This document shows, piece by piece, positions 1 to 16,376 of a stretch of 16,376 nt of DNA. The stretch covers positions 1 to 16,376 of the IMG/VR virus record IMGVR_UViG_2850784384_000009; one strand, written 5' to 3'. Numbering within the stretch: the first letter of the stretch is position 1; each line of letters starts with the position of its first letter. A program made the translations under genes and the position numbers. The notes beneath the pieces are model-generated. The model was given only the letters and a program-made list of their open reading frames with translations, ran no database searches and was not told the DNA's origin. The stretch is from a virus (taxonomy: Duplodnaviria; Heunggongvirae; Uroviricota; Caudoviricetes).

Positions 1-819
1 ATGTGTCAGGTATTTGGTGTATCCAGGAGCGGTTATTACAACTGGGTACAGCATGAACCCTCAGACAGAAAACAAAGTGATGAGCGGCTAAAACCGGAGA
101 TTAAGGTGGCACATATCCGCACTCGCGAAACATATGGAACCCGGCGGCTCCAGACGGAGCTGGCAGAGAATGGCATCATCGTTGGTCGTGACCGACTGGC
201 ACGTCTTCGTAAGGAGCTGAGGCTACGCTGTAAGCAGAAACGCAAGTTCAGAGCGACTACGAACCCGAACCACAATCTGCCAGTTGCGCCAAATCTGCTG
301 AACCAGACGTTCGCTCCTACAGCACCAAATCAGGTCTGGGTGGCGGACCTGACGTATGTTGCCACACAGGAGGGATGGTTGTACCTCGCTGGCATCAAAG
401 ATGTTTATACGTGCGAAATTGTCGGCTACGCCATGGGAGAGCGCATGACAAAAGAGCTGACAGGTAAAGCCCTGTTTATGGCGCTCAGGAGCCAGCGCCC
501 ACCTGCCGGGCTAATCCACCACTCTGATCGAGGTTCACAGTACTGCGCATACGATTACCGGGTCATACAGGAGCAGTTTGGTCTGAAAACATCAATGTCG
601 CGTAAAGGTAACTGTTACGACAACGCTCCGATGGAAAGCTTCTGGGGAACGCTGAAAAATGAGAGCCTGAGCCACTATCGTTTTAATAACCGGGATGAAG
701 CCATCTCAGTAATACGGGAATACATTGAGATTTTCTACAATCGTCAGCGTCGTCACTCTCGTCTGGGGAATATCTCCCCGGCAGCCTTCAGGGAAAAATA
801 TCATCAGATGGCTGCTTAA
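1..819 (+). CDS. IS3-family transposase OrfB (DDE integrase-type catalytic domain), IS600 ORF2
   Basis: 272-aa ORF beginning MCQVFGVSRSGYYNW; the same protein recurs on the minus strand at 4529..5230. Normally expressed as an OrfAB fusion by -1 frameshifting. Confidence 0.9.
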   Translation: MCQVFGVSRSGYYNWVQHEPSDRKQSDERLKPEIKVAHIRTRETYGTRRLQTELAENGIIVGRDRLARLRKELRLRCKQKRKFRATTNPNHNLPVAPNLLNQTFAPTAPNQVWVADLTYVATQEGWLYLAGIKDVYTCEIVGYAMGERMTKELTGKALFMALRSQRPPAGLIHHSDRGSQYCAYDYRVIQEQFGLKTSMSRKGNCYDNAPMESFWGTLKNESLSHYRFNNRDEAISVIREYIEIFYNRQRRHSRLGNISPAAFREKYHQMAA

Positions 820-861
820 AAAAGAACAAATGGTAGTGTCCGCTATTGCCAGTACACCTCA
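1..861 (+). mobile_element. IS600 (IS3 family) partial copy A: OrfB through the right inverted repeat; OrfA and left end lie upstream of the window
   Basis: OrfB protein matches the IS600 ORF2 sequence as I recall it. The element end ...gccagtacacctca at 861 is the inverse complement of the left-end motif tgaggt... seen at 15912 and at 5632 (minus). The window starts at the OrfB ATG. Confidence 0.8.
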
Positions 862-945
862 ACTTGTGAAGGAAATGGTACTCAGGGGGATTCCAGTACA
901 GGTGGTGCGCAATTAGCTATAAATGGCCTTAACGGTTCGTGCGCT

Positions 946-1569
946 TTGGTATTAAACAACCCATACTTTGAGGCTAATGCCGGGGGGGCAGACCTTGCTA
1001 TAGATAATACTGGGACGCGCCCTGTAACTGTGGTTATAAACGGTGGAAATTTTCATCGCGTGAGCAGTGCAAGATACACGCACACGAATATTCAAGTAAC
1101 AAGCTCAGGTGGGGGAAAAGTTACAGTCATACTCAACGGCACAACGTTCCAGAGCGCAGGGGATTATCAGCCAAGTGCAGAACGACCATACTGGATAACA
1201 GGAGCTAATTGCGAGGTAGTTGACATTGGGTGTGTTTTTACAGAAACAACCAGTAAGGTAACATCGGCTTCTGCATTGTCAGTCACACGCTCGGGAAAAA
1301 TTAACGCCAATGGTAGTATCGACGTTGCTACTGGTGTTTCATCGGTTAACGTGGTTTCTACAGGTGTGTATGATGTTAGCTTTTCTCATCCGCTCGCAGC
1401 AGTTGCTAGCGGTTATATTGTGCAGATAACACCTATATCTGCGCCTGATTCAGTTAGTTGTGATGTTACTTATATTGGCGTAGATACATTTAGGGTGACC
1501 CTGCGCAATACGCTTAGCGGGGCAGGAATCTCCAGTTCGTTTGCATTTAGCATTACCAGACTAATATAA
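946..1569 (+). CDS. 5'-truncated gene fragment of unknown function; possibly the C-terminal receptor-binding part of a tailspike or tail fibre
   Basis: ORF starts at a TTG, but the frame is open with no stop and no start codon back to the IS600 end at 862, so the native 5' part was removed by the IS. It occupies the tailspike position of Sf6/P22 gene order (tailspike, O-antigen modification gene, attP, int). The protein is Gly/Ser/Thr/Val-rich, which fits a beta-rich fold; no motif recognised. Confidence 0.35.
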   Translation: MVLNNPYFEANAGGADLAIDNTGTRPVTVVINGGNFHRVSSARYTHTNIQVTSSGGGKVTVILNGTTFQSAGDYQPSAERPYWITGANCEVVDIGCVFTETTSKVTSASALSVTRSGKINANGSIDVATGVSSVNVVSTGVYDVSFSHPLAAVASGYIVQITPISAPDSVSCDVTYIGVDTFRVTLRNTLSGAGISSSFAFSITRLI

Positions 1570-1577
1570 ATACATTC

Positions 1578-1609
1578 GCCGCCCCATTTGGACATATATG
1601 TAGGGCGGC
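1578..1609. terminator. Putative bidirectional stem-loop terminator between convergent genes
   Basis: gccgccc (1578..1584) and gggcggc (1603..1609) are perfect inverse complements. The 18-nt loop contains the palindrome acatatatgt. T-rich sequence follows on the plus strand. The long loop makes this uncertain. Confidence 0.3.
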
Positions 1610-1622
1610 TTATGTTTATTGT

Positions 1623-2795
1623 TTATTGATTGTTGTTTGTTAATGTGGGTATTAATTCTTTTACTAAAGTTGTGGTTTGTTTTGTTAATTTGATGAATGG
1701 CGTCTCTATTAATTTAAAAGTTAGGCATGATGTGAACGTAATAAGAAATGCAGTTGTGCTTACCAGTATGATAAATGTATTTTCAGTGTAATTATTAGGA
1801 ATAATCCACGTCATTAGGCAATAAAGGAATATCCCATGCAGAAGGTAAACGCTGTAGGTAGTTTCTCCTAGCTTTCTGGTTATATTTAATCTTAATATTC
1901 CATACAAATCACAACCTGATGCGATAATGATAAATGTTATTCCACAAAGAATCAGTGGTAGCGGTGCGTAAGTTGTTTTGAAATACGTCATTTCAAAAAC
2001 CATTATCGCAGTTATTATAATTGGTGTTACTTTTGCTTTGGCAATTCCATTGACTATCTTTGATTTATTTAGCAAAAATGCCAGGAGCCCAAAAAGAAAT
2101 GATGCTATGTGTATTTTACTGAAAAATAAAATGAAAACAAATAGCGATATTGCGCTAATCATAACCATGTAAATACTGACTTTTCTTTTTATGAGCGCGG
2201 AAATTACCGGAAGAGAAAAATAAAAGAACCATTCATATACAAGTGTCCATGTTACAGCGGCATTGATAGTAAATGAATCTTTTACGTCATTAATGTTCGG
2301 CATACCTAGCGCAGTGAATGGCAACCACTTCATTATTGACACAAAAAGCTCTTCTGTGGATACCTGCATTCTCCATCCAGACTTAAAACCTACAATGATA
2401 AAAATGAGACATAGGCTAACTATGAACATTGGGGTTAATCGTAGTAATCTTGATACATAAAGCCTTGTCCAGTCCTGATCTCCAGAGATAATCTTTGAAA
2501 AGAACAGATAACCAGTAATCATAAAAAAGAATGACACACCAACTTGGCCTAAATTTGCTAACAGATTTGATGAAGGTGCTTCCCATACTCCAGATGACAA
2601 GTATCCATTCCAAATTGCTGCGTGATGAATAAGCACGAAAATTGCTAAGAACCCCCGCATTCCATCTATTTGATTATTCCTGCCGTGCTCAACAAGATTT
2701 ATTGGGGAAATTTTATCAAATAACCCCACAGCTAATAACGACATCAATATCACGGATGTTATTAATAATAAACTGTTAATTTCAATCATATGCAT
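1623..2795 (-). CDS. Acyltransferase family 3 integral membrane protein; putative O-antigen O-acetyltransferase (Oac/OafA-like serotype-conversion protein)
   Basis: 390-aa ORF, strongly hydrophobic throughout (multiple predicted TM segments). N-terminal DGMRGFLAIFVLIHHA resembles the acyltransferase-3 signature (conserved R...H). Markedly AT-rich compared with neighbouring phage genes. Sits immediately next to the att core, as oac does in Sf6 and gtr does in P22. Confidence 0.75.
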   Translation of the reverse strand: MHMIEINSLLLITSVILMSLLAVGLFDKISPINLVEHGRNNQIDGMRGFLAIFVLIHHAAIWNGYLSSGVWEAPSSNLLANLGQVGVSFFFMITGYLFFSKIISGDQDWTRLYVSRLLRLTPMFIVSLCLIFIIVGFKSGWRMQVSTEELFVSIMKWLPFTALGMPNINDVKDSFTINAAVTWTLVYEWFFYFSLPVISALIKRKVSIYMVMISAISLFVFILFFSKIHIASFLFGLLAFLLNKSKIVNGIAKAKVTPIIITAIMVFEMTYFKTTYAPLPLILCGITFIIIASGCDLYGILRLNITRKLGETTYSVYLLHGIFLYCLMTWIIPNNYTENTFIILVSTTAFLITFTSCLTFKLIETPFIKLTKQTTTLVKELIPTLTNNNQ

Positions 2796-3083
2796 GCTCT
2801 ATTACGCAATTAAAATTTCTCCAAGTATACTGACTTTTAGTTAATGATCATATAGTTATGTGTAACTGATGAAACAAAACGGAGACACACCAAGCTTTGC
2901 ACTGGATTGCAAGGCTTTGTGCTCTTCTGTGAATGTGTGGCTATATGTTTGAAGATCGTTGTGCCGTATTTGTGACATATATATGGCAACATCATGCATC
3001 AACTTTCTGTTTGTGTCATCAACTATAGCTTAGTGAATGCGGTTAATGCTTGCTAAAACAGATAGTTATGATTGGTGCTACAG

Positions 3084-3129
3084 ATTCGTAATGCGAAGGT
3101 CGTAGGTTCGACTGCTATTATCGGCACCA
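3084..3129 (+). other. Phage attachment core: 3' 46 nt of a tRNA-Thr gene (thrW-type), attP-like
   Basis: attcgtaatgcgaaggtcgtaggttcgact(g)ctattatcggcacca matches the anticodon-loop-to-CCA end of tRNA-Thr(CGU) as recalled. Upstream sequence is not the tRNA 5' half, so no complete tRNA is present. One apparent T-stem mismatch relative to my recollection of thrW. Confidence 0.75.
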
Positions 3130-3143
3130 TTTAAATCAATAAG

Positions 3144-3592
3144 TTACACATCATTAGTACCTTCCTTATTTCTTGACTGGGACAAATTTGGGACCGATGG
3201 GTTCAGAATCAAGTCTATTTGCCGTGCGTGTTCGGTAAGGTGATTAGGTGCGAGGTGAGCATATCGACGAACCATTTCGATAGACTCCCAGCCTCCCATT
3301 TCCTGTAACACTGATAACGGGACTCCGGCTTGAACCAGCCAACTTGCCCAGGTGTGTCTCAAGTCGTGAAATCTGAAATCATCAATACCAGCCCGTCTCA
3401 GCGCCGCTTTCCAGGCTGTGTTTGCGTCATACCGCATCTTCCTTACTGTTGGCGCTTTCGTTCCGTCTGGTTTGGTACAGCTTTCCTTGTACACAAATAC
3501 CCAACGGTGATGATTTCCGATTTGTTTTTTCAATACGCGACATGCAGTATCATTCAGCGCAACGCCAATTGCGCGGTTTGATTTACTCTCTT
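3144..3592 (-). pseudogene. int: Tyrosine integrase, C-terminal catalytic fragment (P22-type Int), separated from its N-terminal part by IS600
   Basis: Contains [15 protein letters not shown] and VRRYAHL (the H-x-x-R and Y of the catalytic tetrad). The first 5 codons of the track ORF 3144..3608 come from the IS600 end. Reads on directly from the N-terminal fragment at 5633..6350. Confidence 0.85.
3590..3592. repeat. 3-bp target-site duplication (ctt) of IS600 copy B, left copy; right copy at 5633..5635
   Basis: ctt immediately flanks both ends of the element (3590..3592 and 5633..5635). Confidence 0.8.
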
Positions 3593-3775
3593 TGAGGTGT
3601 ACTGGCAATAGCGGACACTACCATTTGTTCTTTTTTAAGCAGCCATCTGATGATATTTTTCCCTGAAGGCTGCCGGGGAGATATTCCCCAGACGAGAGTG
3701 ACGACGCTGACGATTGTAGAAAATCTCAATGTATTCCCGTATTACTGAGATGGCTTCATCGGTAATGACTCCAAC

Positions 3776-4279
3776 TTACTGATAGTGTTTTATGTTCAGA
3801 TAATGCCCGATGACCTTGTCATGCAGCTCCACCGATTTTGAGAACGACAGTGACTTCCGTCCCAGCCTTGCCAGATGTTGTCTCAGATTCAGATTATGTC
3901 GCTCAATGCGCTGAGTGTAACGCTTGCTGATAACGTGCAGCTTTCCCTTCAGGCGTGATTCATACAGCGGTCAGCCATCCGTCATCCATACCACGACCTC
4001 AAAGGCCGACAGCAGGCTCAGAAGACGCTCCAGTGTGGCCAGAGTGCGTTCCCCGAAGACGTGCGCCACAACCGTCCTCCGTATCCTGTCATACGCGTAA
4101 AACAGCCAGCGCTGACGTGATTTAGCACCGACGTAGCCCCAATGTTCGTCCATTTCAGCGCAGACAATCACATCACTGCCCGGTTGTATGCGCGAGGTTA
4201 CCGACTGCGGCCTGAGTTTTTTAAGTGACGTAAAACCGTGTTGAGGCCAACGCCCATAATGCGTGCGCTGGCGCGACAT
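3776..4279 (-). pseudogene. insB: IS1 insB reading frame interrupted by an in-frame TGA
   Basis: Frame reads ...VVVWMTDG then TGA (minus-strand codon at 3971..3973) where canonical InsB has Trp (TGG). The frame then continues [27 protein letters not shown]... to the normal end. Confidence 0.75.
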
Positions 4280-4473
4280 CCGACGCCATTCATGGCCATA
4301 TCAATGATTTTCTGGTGCGTACCGGGCTGAGAGGCGGTGTAAGTGAACTGTAGTTGCCATGTTTTACGGCAATGAGAGCAGAGATAGCGCTGATGTCCGG
4401 CAGTGCTTTTGCCGTTACGCACCACGCCTTCAGTAGCGGAGCAGGAAGGACATCTGATGGAAATGGAAGCCAC
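4198..4473 (-). CDS. insA: IS1 InsA (transposition inhibitor / N-terminal part of InsAB')
   Basis: 91-aa [46 protein letters not shown]..., close to canonical InsA with a few substitutions. Confidence 0.9.
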
Positions 4474-4528
4474 GCAAGCACCTTAAAATCACCATCATAC
4501 ACTAAATCAGTAAGTTGGCAGCATTACC

Positions 4529-5230
4529 GGCTTCATCCCGGTTATTAAAACGATAGTGGCTCAGGCTCTCATTTTTCAGCGTTCCCCAGAAGCTTTCCAT
4601 CGGAGCGTTGTCGTAACAGTTACCTTTACGCGACATTGATGTTTTCAGACCAAACTGCTCCTGTATGACCCGGTAATCGTATGCGCAGTACTGTGAACCT
4701 CGATCAGAGTGGTGGATTAGCCCGGCAGGTGGGCGCTGGCTCCTGAGCGCCATAAACAGGGCTTTACCTGTCAGCTCTTTTGTCATGCGCTCTCCCATGG
4801 CGTAGCCGACAATTTCACACGTATAAACATCTTTGATGCCAGCGAGGTACAACCATCCCTCCTGTGTGGCAACATACGTCAGGTCCGCCACCCAGACCTG
4901 ATTTGGTGCTGTAGGAGCGAACGTCTGGTTCAGCAGATTTGGCGCAACTGGCAGATTGTGGTTCGGGTTCGTAGTCGCTCTGAACTTGCGTTTCTGCTTA
5001 CAGCGTAGCCTTAGCTCCTTACGAAGACGTGCCAGTCGGTCACGACCAACGATGATGCCATTCTCTGCCAGCTCCGTCTGGAGCCGCCGGGTTCCATATG
5101 TTTCGCGAGTGCGGATATGTGCCACCTTAATCTCCAGTTTTAGTCGCTCATCACTTTGTTTTCTGTCTGAGGGTTCATGCTGTACCCAGTTGTAATAACC
5201 GCTCCTGGATACACCAAATACCTGACACAT
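4529..5230 (-). pseudogene. IS600 OrfB transposase, 5' part, disrupted by the IS1 insertion (3' remainder at about 3635..3760)
   Basis: Identical to the plus-strand OrfB up to ...FNNRDEA, then the sequence runs into the IS1 end. The last residues of the track ORF 4502..5230 are IS1-derived. Confidence 0.85.
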
Positions 5231-5265
5231 CGCTTCAATGGGAAATTGTTGTCGCCATTGTTCGA

Positions 5266-5568
5266 TTAACGCGTATTTTTCAGCGACTCCTGTGCAAAAT
5301 ACGCTGTTGCTTTTTTTAATATATCTCGCTCAAGGCGAGCTTCATTTAACGCCTTACGCAGTTGCAGAATTTCAGATTCCAGTTCAGCCACCGTGCGGGA
5401 ACCAGGAGTACCGAGCCCTTTTCTGGCGGCGGTAACCCATTGTCCTAAAGTGCCTTCAGGAAGGAATAATCGGGAAGCGTCTTCACTGATCGAAAGTTGA
5501 TTTTCAAGAACCGTTCTGACAGCTTCGGCTTTGAACTCTTTAGAGTAACGTCGGGTTTTTCTGCTCAT
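5266..5568 (-). CDS. IS600 OrfA (helix-turn-helix / leucine-zipper transposase N-terminal protein)
   Basis: 100-aa ORF MSRKTRRYSKEFKAEAVRTVLENQLSISE..., matching IS600 ORF1 as recalled. Confidence 0.9.
   Translation of the reverse strand: MSRKTRRYSKEFKAEAVRTVLENQLSISEDASRLFLPEGTLGQWVTAARKGLGTPGSRTVAELESEILQLRKALNEARLERDILKKATAYFAQESLKNTR
5311..5317 (-). promoter_or_regulatory. Probable programmed -1 ribosomal frameshift slippery site (A7) for the IS600 OrfAB fusion
   Basis: ttttttt on the plus strand is A AAA AAA on the coding strand, near the 3' end of OrfA where the OrfB frame overlaps. This is the standard IS3-family arrangement. Confidence 0.5.
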
Positions 5569-5632
5569 TATTAGCTCCTTCTGATGCCATTCTATTTCAG
5601 GAAGGAGTGTCCGTTAAACTCAGGCTACCTCA

Positions 5633-6350
5633 CTTCCGGGTTTATCCATGCCACCCGGCGCTGCATATCTATTTGTTGCCATTCAAGGTTGATGATGTTC
5701 GAGCGTCTTAAGCCTGTTGCCAGTGCAAATTCAACAACAGACTTTAATGGCTCCGGACATTCATCAATCAGCCTTTGTGCTTCATGGGGCTCCAGCCAGC
5801 GGATCCGTTTATTCTTTGGTTGAGGCACTTTAATAATTGGTGCCTTATCCAGCATTTTCCATTCACGCTCTGCGGCTCTTAGTAGGGCCTTTATAAATGA
5901 AAGATGCGTAGCCTTCGTTGCAACGGACGCTGGTTTTGGCGTGTATTCTGGAACAGGTTTCCCTTTTTTTCTGCATGATTCTGCCCTGAGTTTCCAGTTT
6001 TCCTCATGACGCCGGTTCGTCATTTTCTGCATTGCTGAATAAATTTTTGATTCAGTAATGTCTCTTAGTTGTATTCCTGCGAAATGTTGAAGCCAGAATC
6101 CGATCCGGCTTTTGTCATCGTCCAGTGATTTTTTATGTGCTTTCTCTTCAAGCCACCTGACACACGCTTCCTCGAACGTTATATCAGGTATTTCACCAAG
6201 TTTGCTGACCCGCCATGCTTCAGCCTTTAGCTTGTCATGGAGTTCTGTCGCCTGCCTTTTGTCCTTTGTTCCAAGAGACTGTTTAAATCTTTTACCGTTC
6301 GGCAATGTGAAACTGGCGTACCATATTTCACCTCTGCGGAAGAGTGACAT
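5633..6350 (-). pseudogene. int: Tyrosine integrase, N-terminal fragment (P22-type Int), interrupted by IS600
   Basis: [46 protein letters not shown]... matches the P22 Int N-terminus as recalled. Contains TGLRRSNI (the first catalytic Arg). The last 3 codons of the track ORF plus the stop are IS-derived. Confidence 0.85.
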
Positions 6351-6428
6351 TTTCTTTCCTCTGTTATGCCATCACCCGCGCTCACCTGGACAGTATGCAG
6401 CGGAGACTGAAGAGCCGCAATGAAGTGG

Positions 6429-7597
<1,169 letters not shown>

Positions 7598-7669
7598 TGG
7601 AGCACCTGTGTTGTTCTGAGGTGAGCATATCACCTCTGTTCAGGTGGCCAAATTCAGTGTGCCACTTCA

Positions 7670-8824
7670 TGGATGCCTGTTGAGCAGGAAGCGCCAACCC
7701 AGACTGGCTGGGATTTAACTGGCAACGCAACCGGGATTCTGGAACTCTCCGTGAAGTGCAACATGGGCGATCCGGATAACGATTTCTTCGAGCTTCGTGC
7801 AGATGACCTGCGTGATGAGCGTTCTTACCGTCGCCGCATCCAGGCATCCGCCAAAAAACTGGCGAATAACATTGAGTCAGCGATTGCCAAACAGGCAACT
7901 GAAATGGGCTCGCTTGTTGTTCACGATACCCGCGCAATTGGTCCATCGACTGGCCTGCCTGGCTGGGATTTTGTGTCTGATGCAGAGCGACTGATGTTCT
8001 CCCGTGAGCTAAACCGCGACATGGGCATCAGTTACTTCCTGAACCCTGACGATTACCGCAAAGCAGGCCGCAACCTGGTAGATGGTGACATCTTCGGGCG
8101 CGTTCCTGAAGAAGCATATCGAAACGGTACTATTCAGCGTCAGATTGCTGGCTTTGATGAAATTCTTCGCTCACCGAAACTTCCGGCAGTTACCAAGTCA
8201 ACCGCGACTGGTGTAACTGTTTCTGGTGCGCAGAAGTTTAAGCCGCAGGCATACACCCTTGATACCGATGGTAACAAAGAGAACGTCGACAACCGTGTTG
8301 CAACGGTGACCGTATCCTCCACCACCGGATTTAAGCGCGGCGACAAAATCAGCTTCATTGGTGTGAAGTTCCTGTCTCAGATGGCGAAGAATGTGCTGAC
8401 TGATGACGCGACTTTCTCAATCACCCGTGTGATCGATGGTACTCACATCGAAATCACGCCGAAGCCGATTGCGCTGGATGACGCGTCACTGACAAAAGAA
8501 GAGAAGGCTTACGCTAACGTAAACACCTCTCTTGCTGATACCACTCCGGTAAACGTTCTGAACGTGGCAACAACCACCGCTAACGTGTTCTGGGCTGATG
8601 ACTCAATCCGCCTGCTGTCTCAGCCGATCCCGGTAACCCATGAACTGTTTGCTGGCATGAAAACGTCTTCCTTCAGCATTCCAGGTATTGGTGTTAACGG
8701 CATCTTCGCAACGCAGGGTGATATCAACACTCTGTCTGGTAAGTGCCGTATTGCTGTGTGGTATTCAGCATGTGCTGTACGACCAGAGGCAATTGGTGTT
8801 GGTCTGCCTAACCAGACCGCGTGA
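7670..8824 (+). pseudogene. P22-type major capsid (coat) protein gene, 5'-truncated at the IS911 boundary
   Basis: Reading frame from 7670 gives [18 protein letters not shown]... ending GVGLPNQTA, which aligns with P22 gp5 from about residue 46 to its C-terminus as recalled. No native start or ribosome-binding site; IS911 directly abuts. Confidence 0.85.
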
Positions 8825-14193: not shown

Positions 14194-15924
14194 ATGGCTA
14201 ATTACCGTGATTTGTTAGAGCAGGCTGGCGCACGTTACGGTGTGCCAGAAGGGTTGATGACTGCACTGGGTGCCAAGGAGTCTTCTTACAACCCTGCCGC
14301 AGTAAGCTCCGCCGGGGCTGTAGGATTGACTCAGGTCATGCCTGGGACATGGCGTGATATGGGTTATACCGATGAGCAAATGCAAAACCCCGAATATCAG
14401 GCTGACGCTGGCGCGCGCTATCTGGCAAAGATGTACCAGCAGTTTGGTAACTGGCGTGACGCTCTTCAGGCTTATCACGACGGTCCCGGCAACGTTATGA
14501 AGGCAAAGCGTGGTGAATATACGCCAGGACCTGAAGGCCGCGGTTACGTTGATGATCGCTTTGCTCAATGGGCTGGTGACCCGGTGACAGACTCAACAGT
14601 CGAACAGCGCGCCACCTCTGCAAAGGTACATCCTCAGCAAGACCCTAACAACCCGTTTGCACAACTGGAAGTACAGTCATCCGAACAAGTATCGGCATCA
14701 GGTGTGCAGTCAGACCCAAATAATCCATTTGCTCAGATTGAGCAGCAGGCAGCCAGTCAGCAGCCACCTCAACCCGTAAGTTCTGTCGCACCGAAACCTG
14801 TTCAGCAACAAACAGTTAATCAGGCCAATAATGCACCAACACGGGAAGAACCATCATTGATGCAACAAGCTGGCGATTGGCTCACTGGTGGTCAAAGTGC
14901 AGGGCAAATTGCAGAACAGGCTGGTCGTGGTCTGGTAAACATACCATTTGACGTATTGCAGGGTGGCGCAAGTCTGATTAATGCAATCAGTCAGGGGCTT
15001 GGGGGGCCAAAAGTATTGGATGATGTTTATCGTCCAGTAGACAGACCGACAGACCCCTACGCGCAAGCTGGAGAGTCAATAGGCGGTTATCTTGTTCCTG
15101 GAGCAGGTGTAGCTGGAAACATGGTCATTGGTTCTCTCGCTGACGCGGCGAATCAACGGGGTGATTTTGCCGAAAATGCCGCTATTAATGCCGGACTTAG
15201 CATTGCTACGCATGGCCTGATAAATGGCGTTACCCGTGGTGTTCGTGGTGCATCAAATATAATTAGTGGCAATAAAACATCTGCACAGAGAGCGACCACT
15301 GCGCCAACAGAAACATCACCATTCTCCGGTGATGCCGCTGCAGCAACAAATCCTGCGGTTCATGCCGCAGAGGCAAGAGTAGCACAAGGTGTACCAATGA
15401 CGCCTGCGACGAAGAACCCAGAGGAAGTCGTTCGCACAGTAGCAGCACAAAAAAGGCCAAATCTCGCTTCATCGCTTGATGAACTAGATATCAATCCTCA
15501 GGCTGAAGTTCTGGAGTCTGCTGAAAGGCTTAATGTTGATTCATTACTCCCTTCACACTTTTCCGGGAACGAGCAATACAAGGCAGTTGAGCAAGCAATC
15601 AAGTCCCGTGCGGGTTCTGCTCTACAGGTGCAGGAAAATGAAGCAATCAGGCAGCTAGCACAGGGCGCGGGTGAGATAATTGATCGCGTTTCCGGTGCAA
15701 AAGATGCTCTTGGTATGAGCGACAAGTTTATTGATACGGTCAATGGAAGAATGTCTGCGCTGATGAAACGAAGCGACCAGCTTTATCGCAATGTTGAAAA
15801 GGCGATGCCTGCAGGTGCAAAAATTGATGCGCCATCAACAAGGTCAATGCTCAAACAGGTGGCAGAAGATCTTGGCGGGATGAAAAACCTTGACCCTATT
15901 GAAAAGAGAGTTGAGGTAGCCTGA
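14194..15924 (+). CDS. gp16-position ejection protein with N-terminal lytic transglycosylase (SLT) domain; 3' end replaced by the IS600 terminus
   Basis: N-terminal [28 protein letters not shown] plus AYHDGPGNV are SLT-family motifs including the catalytic Glu-Ser. The last 4 codons (VEVA) and the stop lie inside the IS600 left end, which starts at 15912. Confidence 0.7.
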
Positions 15925-15995
15925 GTTTAACGGACACTCCTTCCTGAAATAGAATGGCATCAGAAGGAGCTAATAATGAGCAGAAAAACCCAACG
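15912..15995 (+). mobile_element. IS600 left-end fragment (inverted repeat plus first 7 codons of OrfA), interrupted by IS629
   Basis: tgaggtagcctgagtttaacggacactccttcctgaaatagaatggcatcagaaggagctaataatgagcagaaaaaccc is identical to the inverse complement of 5553..5632. It diverges at 15996 where IS629 begins. Confidence 0.85.
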
Positions 15996-16376
15996 TGAAC
16001 CGCCCCGGGAATCCTGGAGACTAAACTTCCTGAGAAAGAGGTAAACAGGATGACTAAAAATACTCGTTTTTCCCCCGAAGTCCGTCAACGGGCAGTCCGT
16101 ATGGTTCTGGAAAGTCAGGGCGAATATGACTCACAATGGGCGACAATTTGTTCCATTGCCCCAAAGATTGGCTGTACGCCGGAGACTCTGCGTGTCTGGG
16201 TTCGCCAGCATGAGCGGGATACCGGGGGCGGTGATGGAGGGCTCACCACCGCTGAACGTCAGCGTCTGAAAGAGCTGGAGCGTGAAAATCGTGAACTGCG
16301 CCGCAGTAACGATATCCTTCGCCAGGCTTCCGCTTATTTTGCGAAGGCGGAGTTCGACCGCCTCTGGAAAAAATGA
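15996..16376 (+). mobile_element. IS629 (IS3 family), left end and OrfA; continues beyond the window
   Basis: Starts tgaaccgccccgggaatcctggagac, the IS629 terminus as recalled, followed by OrfA. Confidence 0.8.
16050..16376 (+). CDS. IS629 OrfA
   Basis: 108-aa [53 protein letters not shown]...AEFDRLWKK. The window ends at its stop codon. Confidence 0.85.

Follow-up and report, generated by a model that had tools for sequence, protein, structure and literature searches.

Positions 862-1569 of the window, by which we mean the whole 16,376-nt stretch of DNA analysed here, very probably represent a non-functional 3′ remnant (235 of ~570 codons, ~40%) of the P22 gene 9-equivalent tailspike gene of a Shigella flexneri serotype-converting prophage. 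The window as a whole is a P22-like serotype-converting prophage, heavily riddled with IS elements, in which the following features were delineated:

1..861, plus strand: IS600 portion (bases ~403-1264 of the element), 99.7% identical to the full IS600 copy from L016
1-819, plus strand: IS600 orfB, inside the IS600 portion 1..861, the right inverted repeat of which ends …ACACCTCA at 861
862..1569, plus strand: tailspike gene remnant with its stop codon; codons equivalent to 336-570 of an intact 570-aa gene and to 346-580 of Sf101 gp15
946..1569, plus strand: 207-aa ORF with a TTG start, present in the ORF list and reported by gene callers
1572..1615, no strand assigned: GC-rich hairpin (core 1578-1609) from RNA folding
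1623..2795, minus strand: oacB, intact, 390 aa, PF01757 Acyl_transf_3
3083..3129, plus strand: att core, located between oacB and the stop codon of the integrase gene and made up of the 3′ part of a thrW-like tRNA-Thr sequence
3144..6350, minus strand: SfIV-type integrase gene, split, Pfam Phage_integrase on both pieces
3144-3592 and 5633-6350, minus strand: C-terminal and N-terminal part of the integrase, respectively (Pfam Phage_integrase)
3593-3760 and 4529-5632: IS600 pieces within the integrase gene, with an IS1 fragment between them
14194..15911, plus strand: P22 gp16-like ejection protein gene, 3′-truncated, 576 aa versus 797-911 aa when intact
15912..15996, plus strand: IS600 bases 1-85 (left inverted repeat), abutting the truncated gp16
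15997-16376: another IS3-family element, interrupting the IS600 stub

The junction between the insertion sequence and the remnant is exact to the base. The right terminus of IS600 at window base 861 reads …GGTAGTGTCCGCTATTGCCAGTACACCTCA and is followed by ACTTGTGAAGG. All IS600 ends that could be extracted from the window and related loci were uniform, the right ends being …ACACCTCA and the left ends TGAGGTAGCC…, and the second copy in the window has the same right terminus at 3593. In E. coli genomes, the element at 1..861 is annotated as IS3-like element IS600 family transposase. A four-way DNA alignment placed the onset of homology to intact tailspike genes exactly at base 862. The preliminary description had proposed a frame free of stop codons from 1569 back to the IS600 end, and 862 is indeed the first base past IS600; the frame nonetheless continues open to 820, such that frame 1 runs without a stop from there to the TAA at 1567-1569 (249 open codons), while 15 and 21 stops interrupt the other two forward frames in this interval. 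Upstream, the frame is closed by the TAA at 817-819, the stop codon of IS600 orfB, which by chance lies in the frame of the remnant. The composition-based probability of an open run of this length is ~3e-7. In 20,000 shuffles, the longest open run was 232 codons (mean 70), short of the 235 codons of the remnant.

Transposase and tailspike remnant thus share one frame with a single stop codon between them (window 817-862). In one related locus, L008 (CP130061.1), an extra A in the A-run past the IS600 orfB stop joins an alternative IS600 frame to the remnant, yielding a 281-aa ORF; we rejected this ORF as an altered form of the remnant, as its cause, the one additional A, lies outside the latter. 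As for initiation codons, TTG 946 had been described as the sole in-frame start. It is the earliest one, but seven further GTG or TTG codons follow downstream (1030, 1060, 1276, 1351, 1366, 1420 and 1495), and the frame of the remnant contains no ATG. The 207-aa ORF beginning at TTG 946 is an artefact of the longest-ORF rule.

That the retained sequence is the C-terminal, receptor-binding part of a tailspike, as surmised from position and composition in the preliminary description, was borne out by several searches. BLASTP aligned the remnant with residues 346-580 of Sf101 gp15 without a gap (77% identity, E 2e-126), a sequence search of the PDB returned residues 351-585 of Sf11 gp13 (9occ_G, E 5e-117), and the profile of PHROG 17420 (‘tail protein’) was matched at positions 344-567 of 568. 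In a megablast search against phage genomes, window positions 922-2900 corresponded to the Sf101 genes for a “tail protein” and an O-acetyltransferase. The closest relatives are intact prophage genes: residues 336-570 of the E. coli orthologue in L015 (570 aa) share 97% protein identity with the remnant, and the S. flexneri alleles of P0015 (570 aa) and L017-L020 are 98.4% identical to it at the DNA level over the retained region. Homology in this receptor-binding C-terminal region accordingly extends gapless across all 235 residues at 77-97% identity. PF09008 (Head_binding) was detected at residues 1-113 of Sf101 gp15, and the intact orthologues of 570-580 aa in related prophages, for which a search had been suggested, carry this N-terminal domain as well. 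The remnant has lost PF09008 together with about the first half of the central domain and is a remnant of a member of the tailspike family, not a functional member. Two 207-aa “proteins” (P0002 and P0006) that had been considered as independent truncations at the same site were dismissed, since they lie inside intact 570/580-aa genes. In intact homologues the gene order is gp16, arc/mnt, tailspike, O-antigen modification gene, att and int; the window keeps the downstream order (oacB, att, int), and the upstream side is replaced by IS600.

Structure prediction is compatible with this assignment. The AlphaFold model of the remnant (pLDDT 70) displays about four three-stranded rungs with a period of ~30 residues (residues 16-122), followed by a beta-sandwich at 143-233; in the model of a longer homologue (pLDDT 62) the rungs are extended. 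Both models were built on a shallow alignment of 7 sequences and deserve moderate confidence at most. The top Foldseek matches against the PDB were all phage tailspikes, namely phi297 gp61, AP22 gp54, Sf6 and HK620, at TM scores not above 0.32, and for the model of the longer homologue, itself of low confidence, the Sf6 tailspike ranked first with a TM of 0.26. The predicted fold would thus be consistent with, but not decisive for, a tailspike. According to the model, the truncation point appears to lie inside the beta-helix and not at a domain boundary. The earlier idea of a C-terminal receptor-binding domain can therefore be retained with regard to the C-terminal location, but the fragment is not a clean domain, since the predicted beta-helix is cut midway. 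The full-length protein would be anchored to the virion by its N-terminal head-binding domain and would bind, and probably cleave, O-antigen by means of a trimeric beta-helix that is followed by a C-terminal beta-sandwich. In the P22 tailspike, C-terminal parts drive trimerisation.

Turning to the loss of the 5′ part, a tblastn search with full-length gp15 matched residues 346-580 only; nothing corresponding to tailspike residues 1-345 was found in the window or in ten S. flexneri loci covered to 10 kb on either side. The IS600 beside the remnant consists of bases 80-1264 in every locus and is preceded by the same inserted IS3-family element. In CP026871.1 (L007, 11935-14506), IS600 bases 1-85, the inserted IS and IS600 bases 80-1264 form one contiguous stretch between the truncated gp16 gene (gp16′) and the remnant, which indicates that a single IS600 formerly linked gp16′ straight to the remnant. 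A 3-bp target-site duplication is absent at this IS600: its flanks are GTT on the gp16 side and ACT on the tailspike side, arguing for deletion or recombination rather than simple insertion. The proposal that the IS removed the 5′ portion was thus correct in that the loss occurred at IS600, but the event is better described as an IS600-bounded deletion or recombination than as a simple insertion. Such a deletion would have spanned the 3′ end of gp16, arc/mnt and ~1005 bp at the start of the tailspike gene (codons 1-335), amounting to ~2.3-2.7 kb as estimated from gene lengths, and would have left IS600 at tailspike codon 335/336. Its route may have been recombination of a pair of IS600 copies or an IS-adjacent deletion, and the order of the rearrangement events is one that we infer. 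In the window, the IS600 stub (bases 1-85) is found at the far right, and the two IS600 pieces lie ~16 kb apart here and in L008, in contrast to their contiguity in L007, from which it follows that these lineages differ by recombination across IS copies.

Three other readings of the locus have to be weighed against that of a tailspike remnant generated by an IS600-bounded deletion. The gene might have been interrupted instead of truncated, i.e. by simple insertion of IS600, with its 5′ half located beyond the IS outside the window. The window begins within IS600, which renders the far side of the element unreadable here, and CP026810.1 (L016) does retain the 5′ half (333 codons) of a tailspike allele that matches, positioned after arc and joined to the left end of a like-oriented IS600. 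Yet all 20 of the 20 remnant loci, among them L008, which matches the window at 99.9-100%, show another IS and then adrA or gp16′ beyond IS600 and never the 5′ half. Moreover, the L016 junction (…ATCAAT/TGAGG) lies 9 bp upstream of the site expected for the partner of a 3-bp duplication, and on its other side the L016 IS600 borders on a fragment of an integrase. We thus consider an interruption very unlikely; the 9-bp offset in L016 may stem from another insertion or from a small deletion that came later. Still less credible, to a degree that makes it practically negligible, is the reading that the open frame arose by chance or encodes a small protein that is complete and has nothing to do with tails, the latter being an outcome that the preliminary description had named as speaking against its own view. 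In favour of this reading, no Pfam domain was found in the remnant. It is refuted, however, by the close match of the whole remnant to the C-terminal 40% of tailspikes of 570-585 aa, and the open frame far exceeds those of all 20,000 shuffles.

The third reading grants the sequence a tailspike origin and assumes that the 207-aa ORF starting at TTG 946 is expressed and has been co-opted, either as a free O-antigen-binding protein or as a subunit that poisons the tailspike trimers of superinfecting phages. The ORF is intact in all copies seen, and its distribution in S. flexneri is extremely wide; identical 207-aa ORFs were counted on at least 1000 contigs of this species, annotated as “Tail spike protein [Shigella flexneri 2a]”, “phage tail protein” or UniProt A0A0H2UXD7. 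It also keeps the complete predicted C-terminal beta-sandwich along with the last beta-helix rungs, and it is situated downstream of IS600 orfB in the same orientation, making read-through transcription conceivable. On the other hand, besides the lack of an ATG, no Shine-Dalgarno sequence was found in the 20 nt before TTG 946 or before any of the later GTG/TTG codons, and a promoter scan revealed no promoter-like site on the plus strand between 600 and 946. The product would start midway through the predicted beta-helix and would be missing most of the central domain as well as an N-terminal cap. The 708-bp remnant DNA is identical in 19 of 20 S. flexneri loci, with one SNP in the remaining locus, making intactness of the ORF uninformative with respect to selection, and linkage to oacB explains its spread. 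Polarised against three intact alleles, the remnant branch carries 3 changes, two of them synonymous and one a Leu to Ile exchange in the last codon; with three branch-specific substitutions, the selection analysis is uninformative. As the copies are clonal and have accumulated just these 3 changes, the intact ORF reflects youth and not selection. None of the copies examined carries a stop or a frameshift in the remnant ORF, so that decay is not directly visible. On balance, we regard co-option as very improbable.

A specific version of co-option may nevertheless be spelled out. A read-through transcript from IS600 is possible and could be stabilised by the downstream hairpin, and a truncated product could in principle partly fold. 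If a stub with a trimerising C-terminus were translated from TTG 946 or a later GTG on such a transcript, it would interfere with superinfecting phages through formation of mixed, head-binding-deficient tailspike trimers or through masking of O-antigen. We rate the prospects of this scenario as very slim; if it were true, the locus would harbour a domesticated ‘tailspike stub’ defence linked to oacB. Returning to the non-functional remnant, we infer that it is neither expressed nor functional. It would be a young neutral relic that hitch-hikes with oacB, the serotype determinant under selection, and it would persist solely through its position between the IS600 end and this selected gene.

The neighbouring gene is oacB, encoding an intact protein identical to Sf101 OacB at 388 of 390 positions (99.5%) and exactly identical to a protein of S. 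flexneri 2a strain 2457T; it is likewise found in thousands of assemblies. OacB carries out 3/4-O-acetylation of rhamnose III (PMC4159516, PMC8952252). The preliminary description had envisaged that tailspike and acyltransferase constitute a receptor/serotype module, and this view held: the acyltransferase gene is oacB, arranged convergently to the tailspike as in Sf101. In Sf101 and in E. coli prophages alike, the tailspike gene is followed by a convergent acyltransferase gene and then by att and int. Between the convergent remnant and oacB, the hairpin at 1572-1615 folds with -19.2 kcal/mol (z = -2.5 versus shuffles) and is followed by a T-rich run on the plus strand. It is probably a late-operon or shared terminator. 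A simple terminator scan did not call the hairpin at 1572-1615, as its loop is too long. The remnant may incidentally supply the terminator region that it has in common with the convergent oacB.

An oacB ‘transposon-like structure’ upstream of adrA has been described (Wang et al. 2014, as cited by PMC4159516 and PMC4206707) for S. flexneri 1a, 1b, 2a, 5a and Y. As far as these citing papers portray it, the window locus matches the published structure: in related chromosomes, the block near adrA has the order IS600 - int - att - oacB - tailspike remnant - IS600, and IS600 copies likewise flank int-oacB-remnant in L012 and L022. The adrA gene (MASE2 + GGDEF) is located outside the window, beyond the IS in L005-L013 and L022-L030 and on the far side of the IS in 2457T-type strains. 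The remnant would thus travel within an IS-flanked int-att-oacB block beside adrA. Compared with the transposon-like structure, a longer part of the P22-like prophage (coat′ to gp16′) survives in the lineage of the window, and its int contains additional IS insertions.

The att core at 3083-3129 was recognised with what we take to be the 3′ end of thrW, which matched at 24 of 25 bases, against 0 matches in 200 shuffles. In the region 2796-3143, phage DNA is present on both sides of this core, the left arm deriving from the oacB phage and the right arm from SfIV-type int/xis. A complete tRNA was not detected in the whole window by ARAGORN, nor did Rfam report anything in the whole window at gathering thresholds. 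Identity of int/xis to phage SfIV begins at 3084 and amounts to 99.1%. The att junction is phage-form or hybrid and not a prophage-chromosome attR, a configuration suggestive of tandem lysogens at thrW or of a circularly permuted prophage that became fixed by IS600 recombination. The integrase gene is inactivated by an IS600 copy with an inferred 3-bp target duplication (3590-3592 / 5633-5635); this IS600 is in turn broken between its bases 1096 and 1104 by ~770 bp holding an IS1 transposase fragment (3971-4279), the DDE domain of IS1 being detected in the insert by Pfam. An IS911 (6421-7669; 99.1% identity to annotated IS911) directly adjoins a coat gene of the P22 type whose first ~50 codons are gone (window 6421-8824). 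Nothing is left of the early region or of the head-assembly genes that would precede coat. After the 5′-truncated coat gene follow gp4, gp10, gp26, gp14, gp7, gp20 and the 3′-truncated gp16, whose identical 576-aa product in L007/L008 gave Pfam matches to SLT and Phage_P22_gp16; the intact gp16 lengths of 797-911 aa were taken from L014, L015 and L018.

Sf101 (Lederbergvirus) encodes a 580-aa tailspike, gp15 (YP_009153089), which resembles the remnant C-terminally and has the same order of a tailspike gene convergent with oacB (gp16 in Sf101). Relative to gp15, the copy in the window is devoid of residues 1-345 including the head-binding domain, and its remaining part represents a diverged receptor-binding allele (77%), although oacB is nearly identical; the combination of a diverged tailspike allele with a near-identical oacB indicates that the region is mosaic. 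Sf101 integrates at sbcB (PMC4159516). It has a different integrase, whereas the window carries a thrW-like att core and an SfIV-type integrase. The siphophage Sf11 depends on S. flexneri O-antigen as receptor through its gp13 tailspike (PMC12724387). Residues 351-585 of this protein (PDB 9OCC) match the remnant end to end, but gp13 differs in having a helical N-terminal adaptor for the siphophage tail. The 9OCC structure models gp13 residues 4-59 only, such that the part retained in the window lacks an experimental structure (PMC12724387). The Sf6 and P22 tailspikes, beta-helix endorhamnosidases, belong to the same architecture class with a head-binding domain, a beta-helix and a C-terminal domain, but sequence similarity to them is not detectable beyond the head-binding domain.

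The alleles of E. coli L015 and of S. flexneri P0015 and L017-L020 occupy the same position after gp16 and arc as the ancestor of the remnant would have done, and they differ in being full length with PF09008. In L017-L020, the intact S. flexneri allele is followed by a cluster of gtrA, gtrB and a 421-aa glucosyltransferase-type gene and not by oacB, meaning that one receptor-binding allele has been paired with different O-antigen modification modules. The E. coli L015 copy is followed by a gene for a 397-aa acyltransferase and adjoins ybhB-bioA. Recombination has taken place within and beside the receptor-binding region.

Much of this locus was already known, including the locus itself, the gene family, the IS and the mechanism, and the remnant is an ordinary annotated prophage relic that leaves the current understanding of serotype conversion unchanged. 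What we add is the breakpoint at codon 335/336 of a 570-codon gene, the predicted mid-helix start of the fragment, the discovery of intact alleles nearly identical to it and a reconstruction of the IS600-bounded deletion. In terms of annotation, the recurrent 207-aa “phage tail protein” CDS, present in thousands of assemblies, should read 5′-truncated tailspike pseudogene. As a molecular fossil, the remnant traces the ancestry of the chromosomal oacB locus to a P22-like phage, which carried a tailspike allele of the Sf101/Sf11 family in conjunction with a thrW-type att/int module. IS600 events, and not Int-mediated excision, shaped the present block.

Two minor observations concern fine detail of the sequence. 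The 9 bp absent at the L016 junction are AGCCTGACT (L016 10990-11010 versus window 855-875 and L017 8550-8575), and the heptamer AGCCTGA within them is identical to IS600 left-end bases 7-13; it may be a targeting microhomology or a chance match, for which a rough estimate gives a probability of ~0.1. Within the remnant, codons 1-92 resemble the S. flexneri L017 allele and codons 104-171 the E. coli L015 allele.
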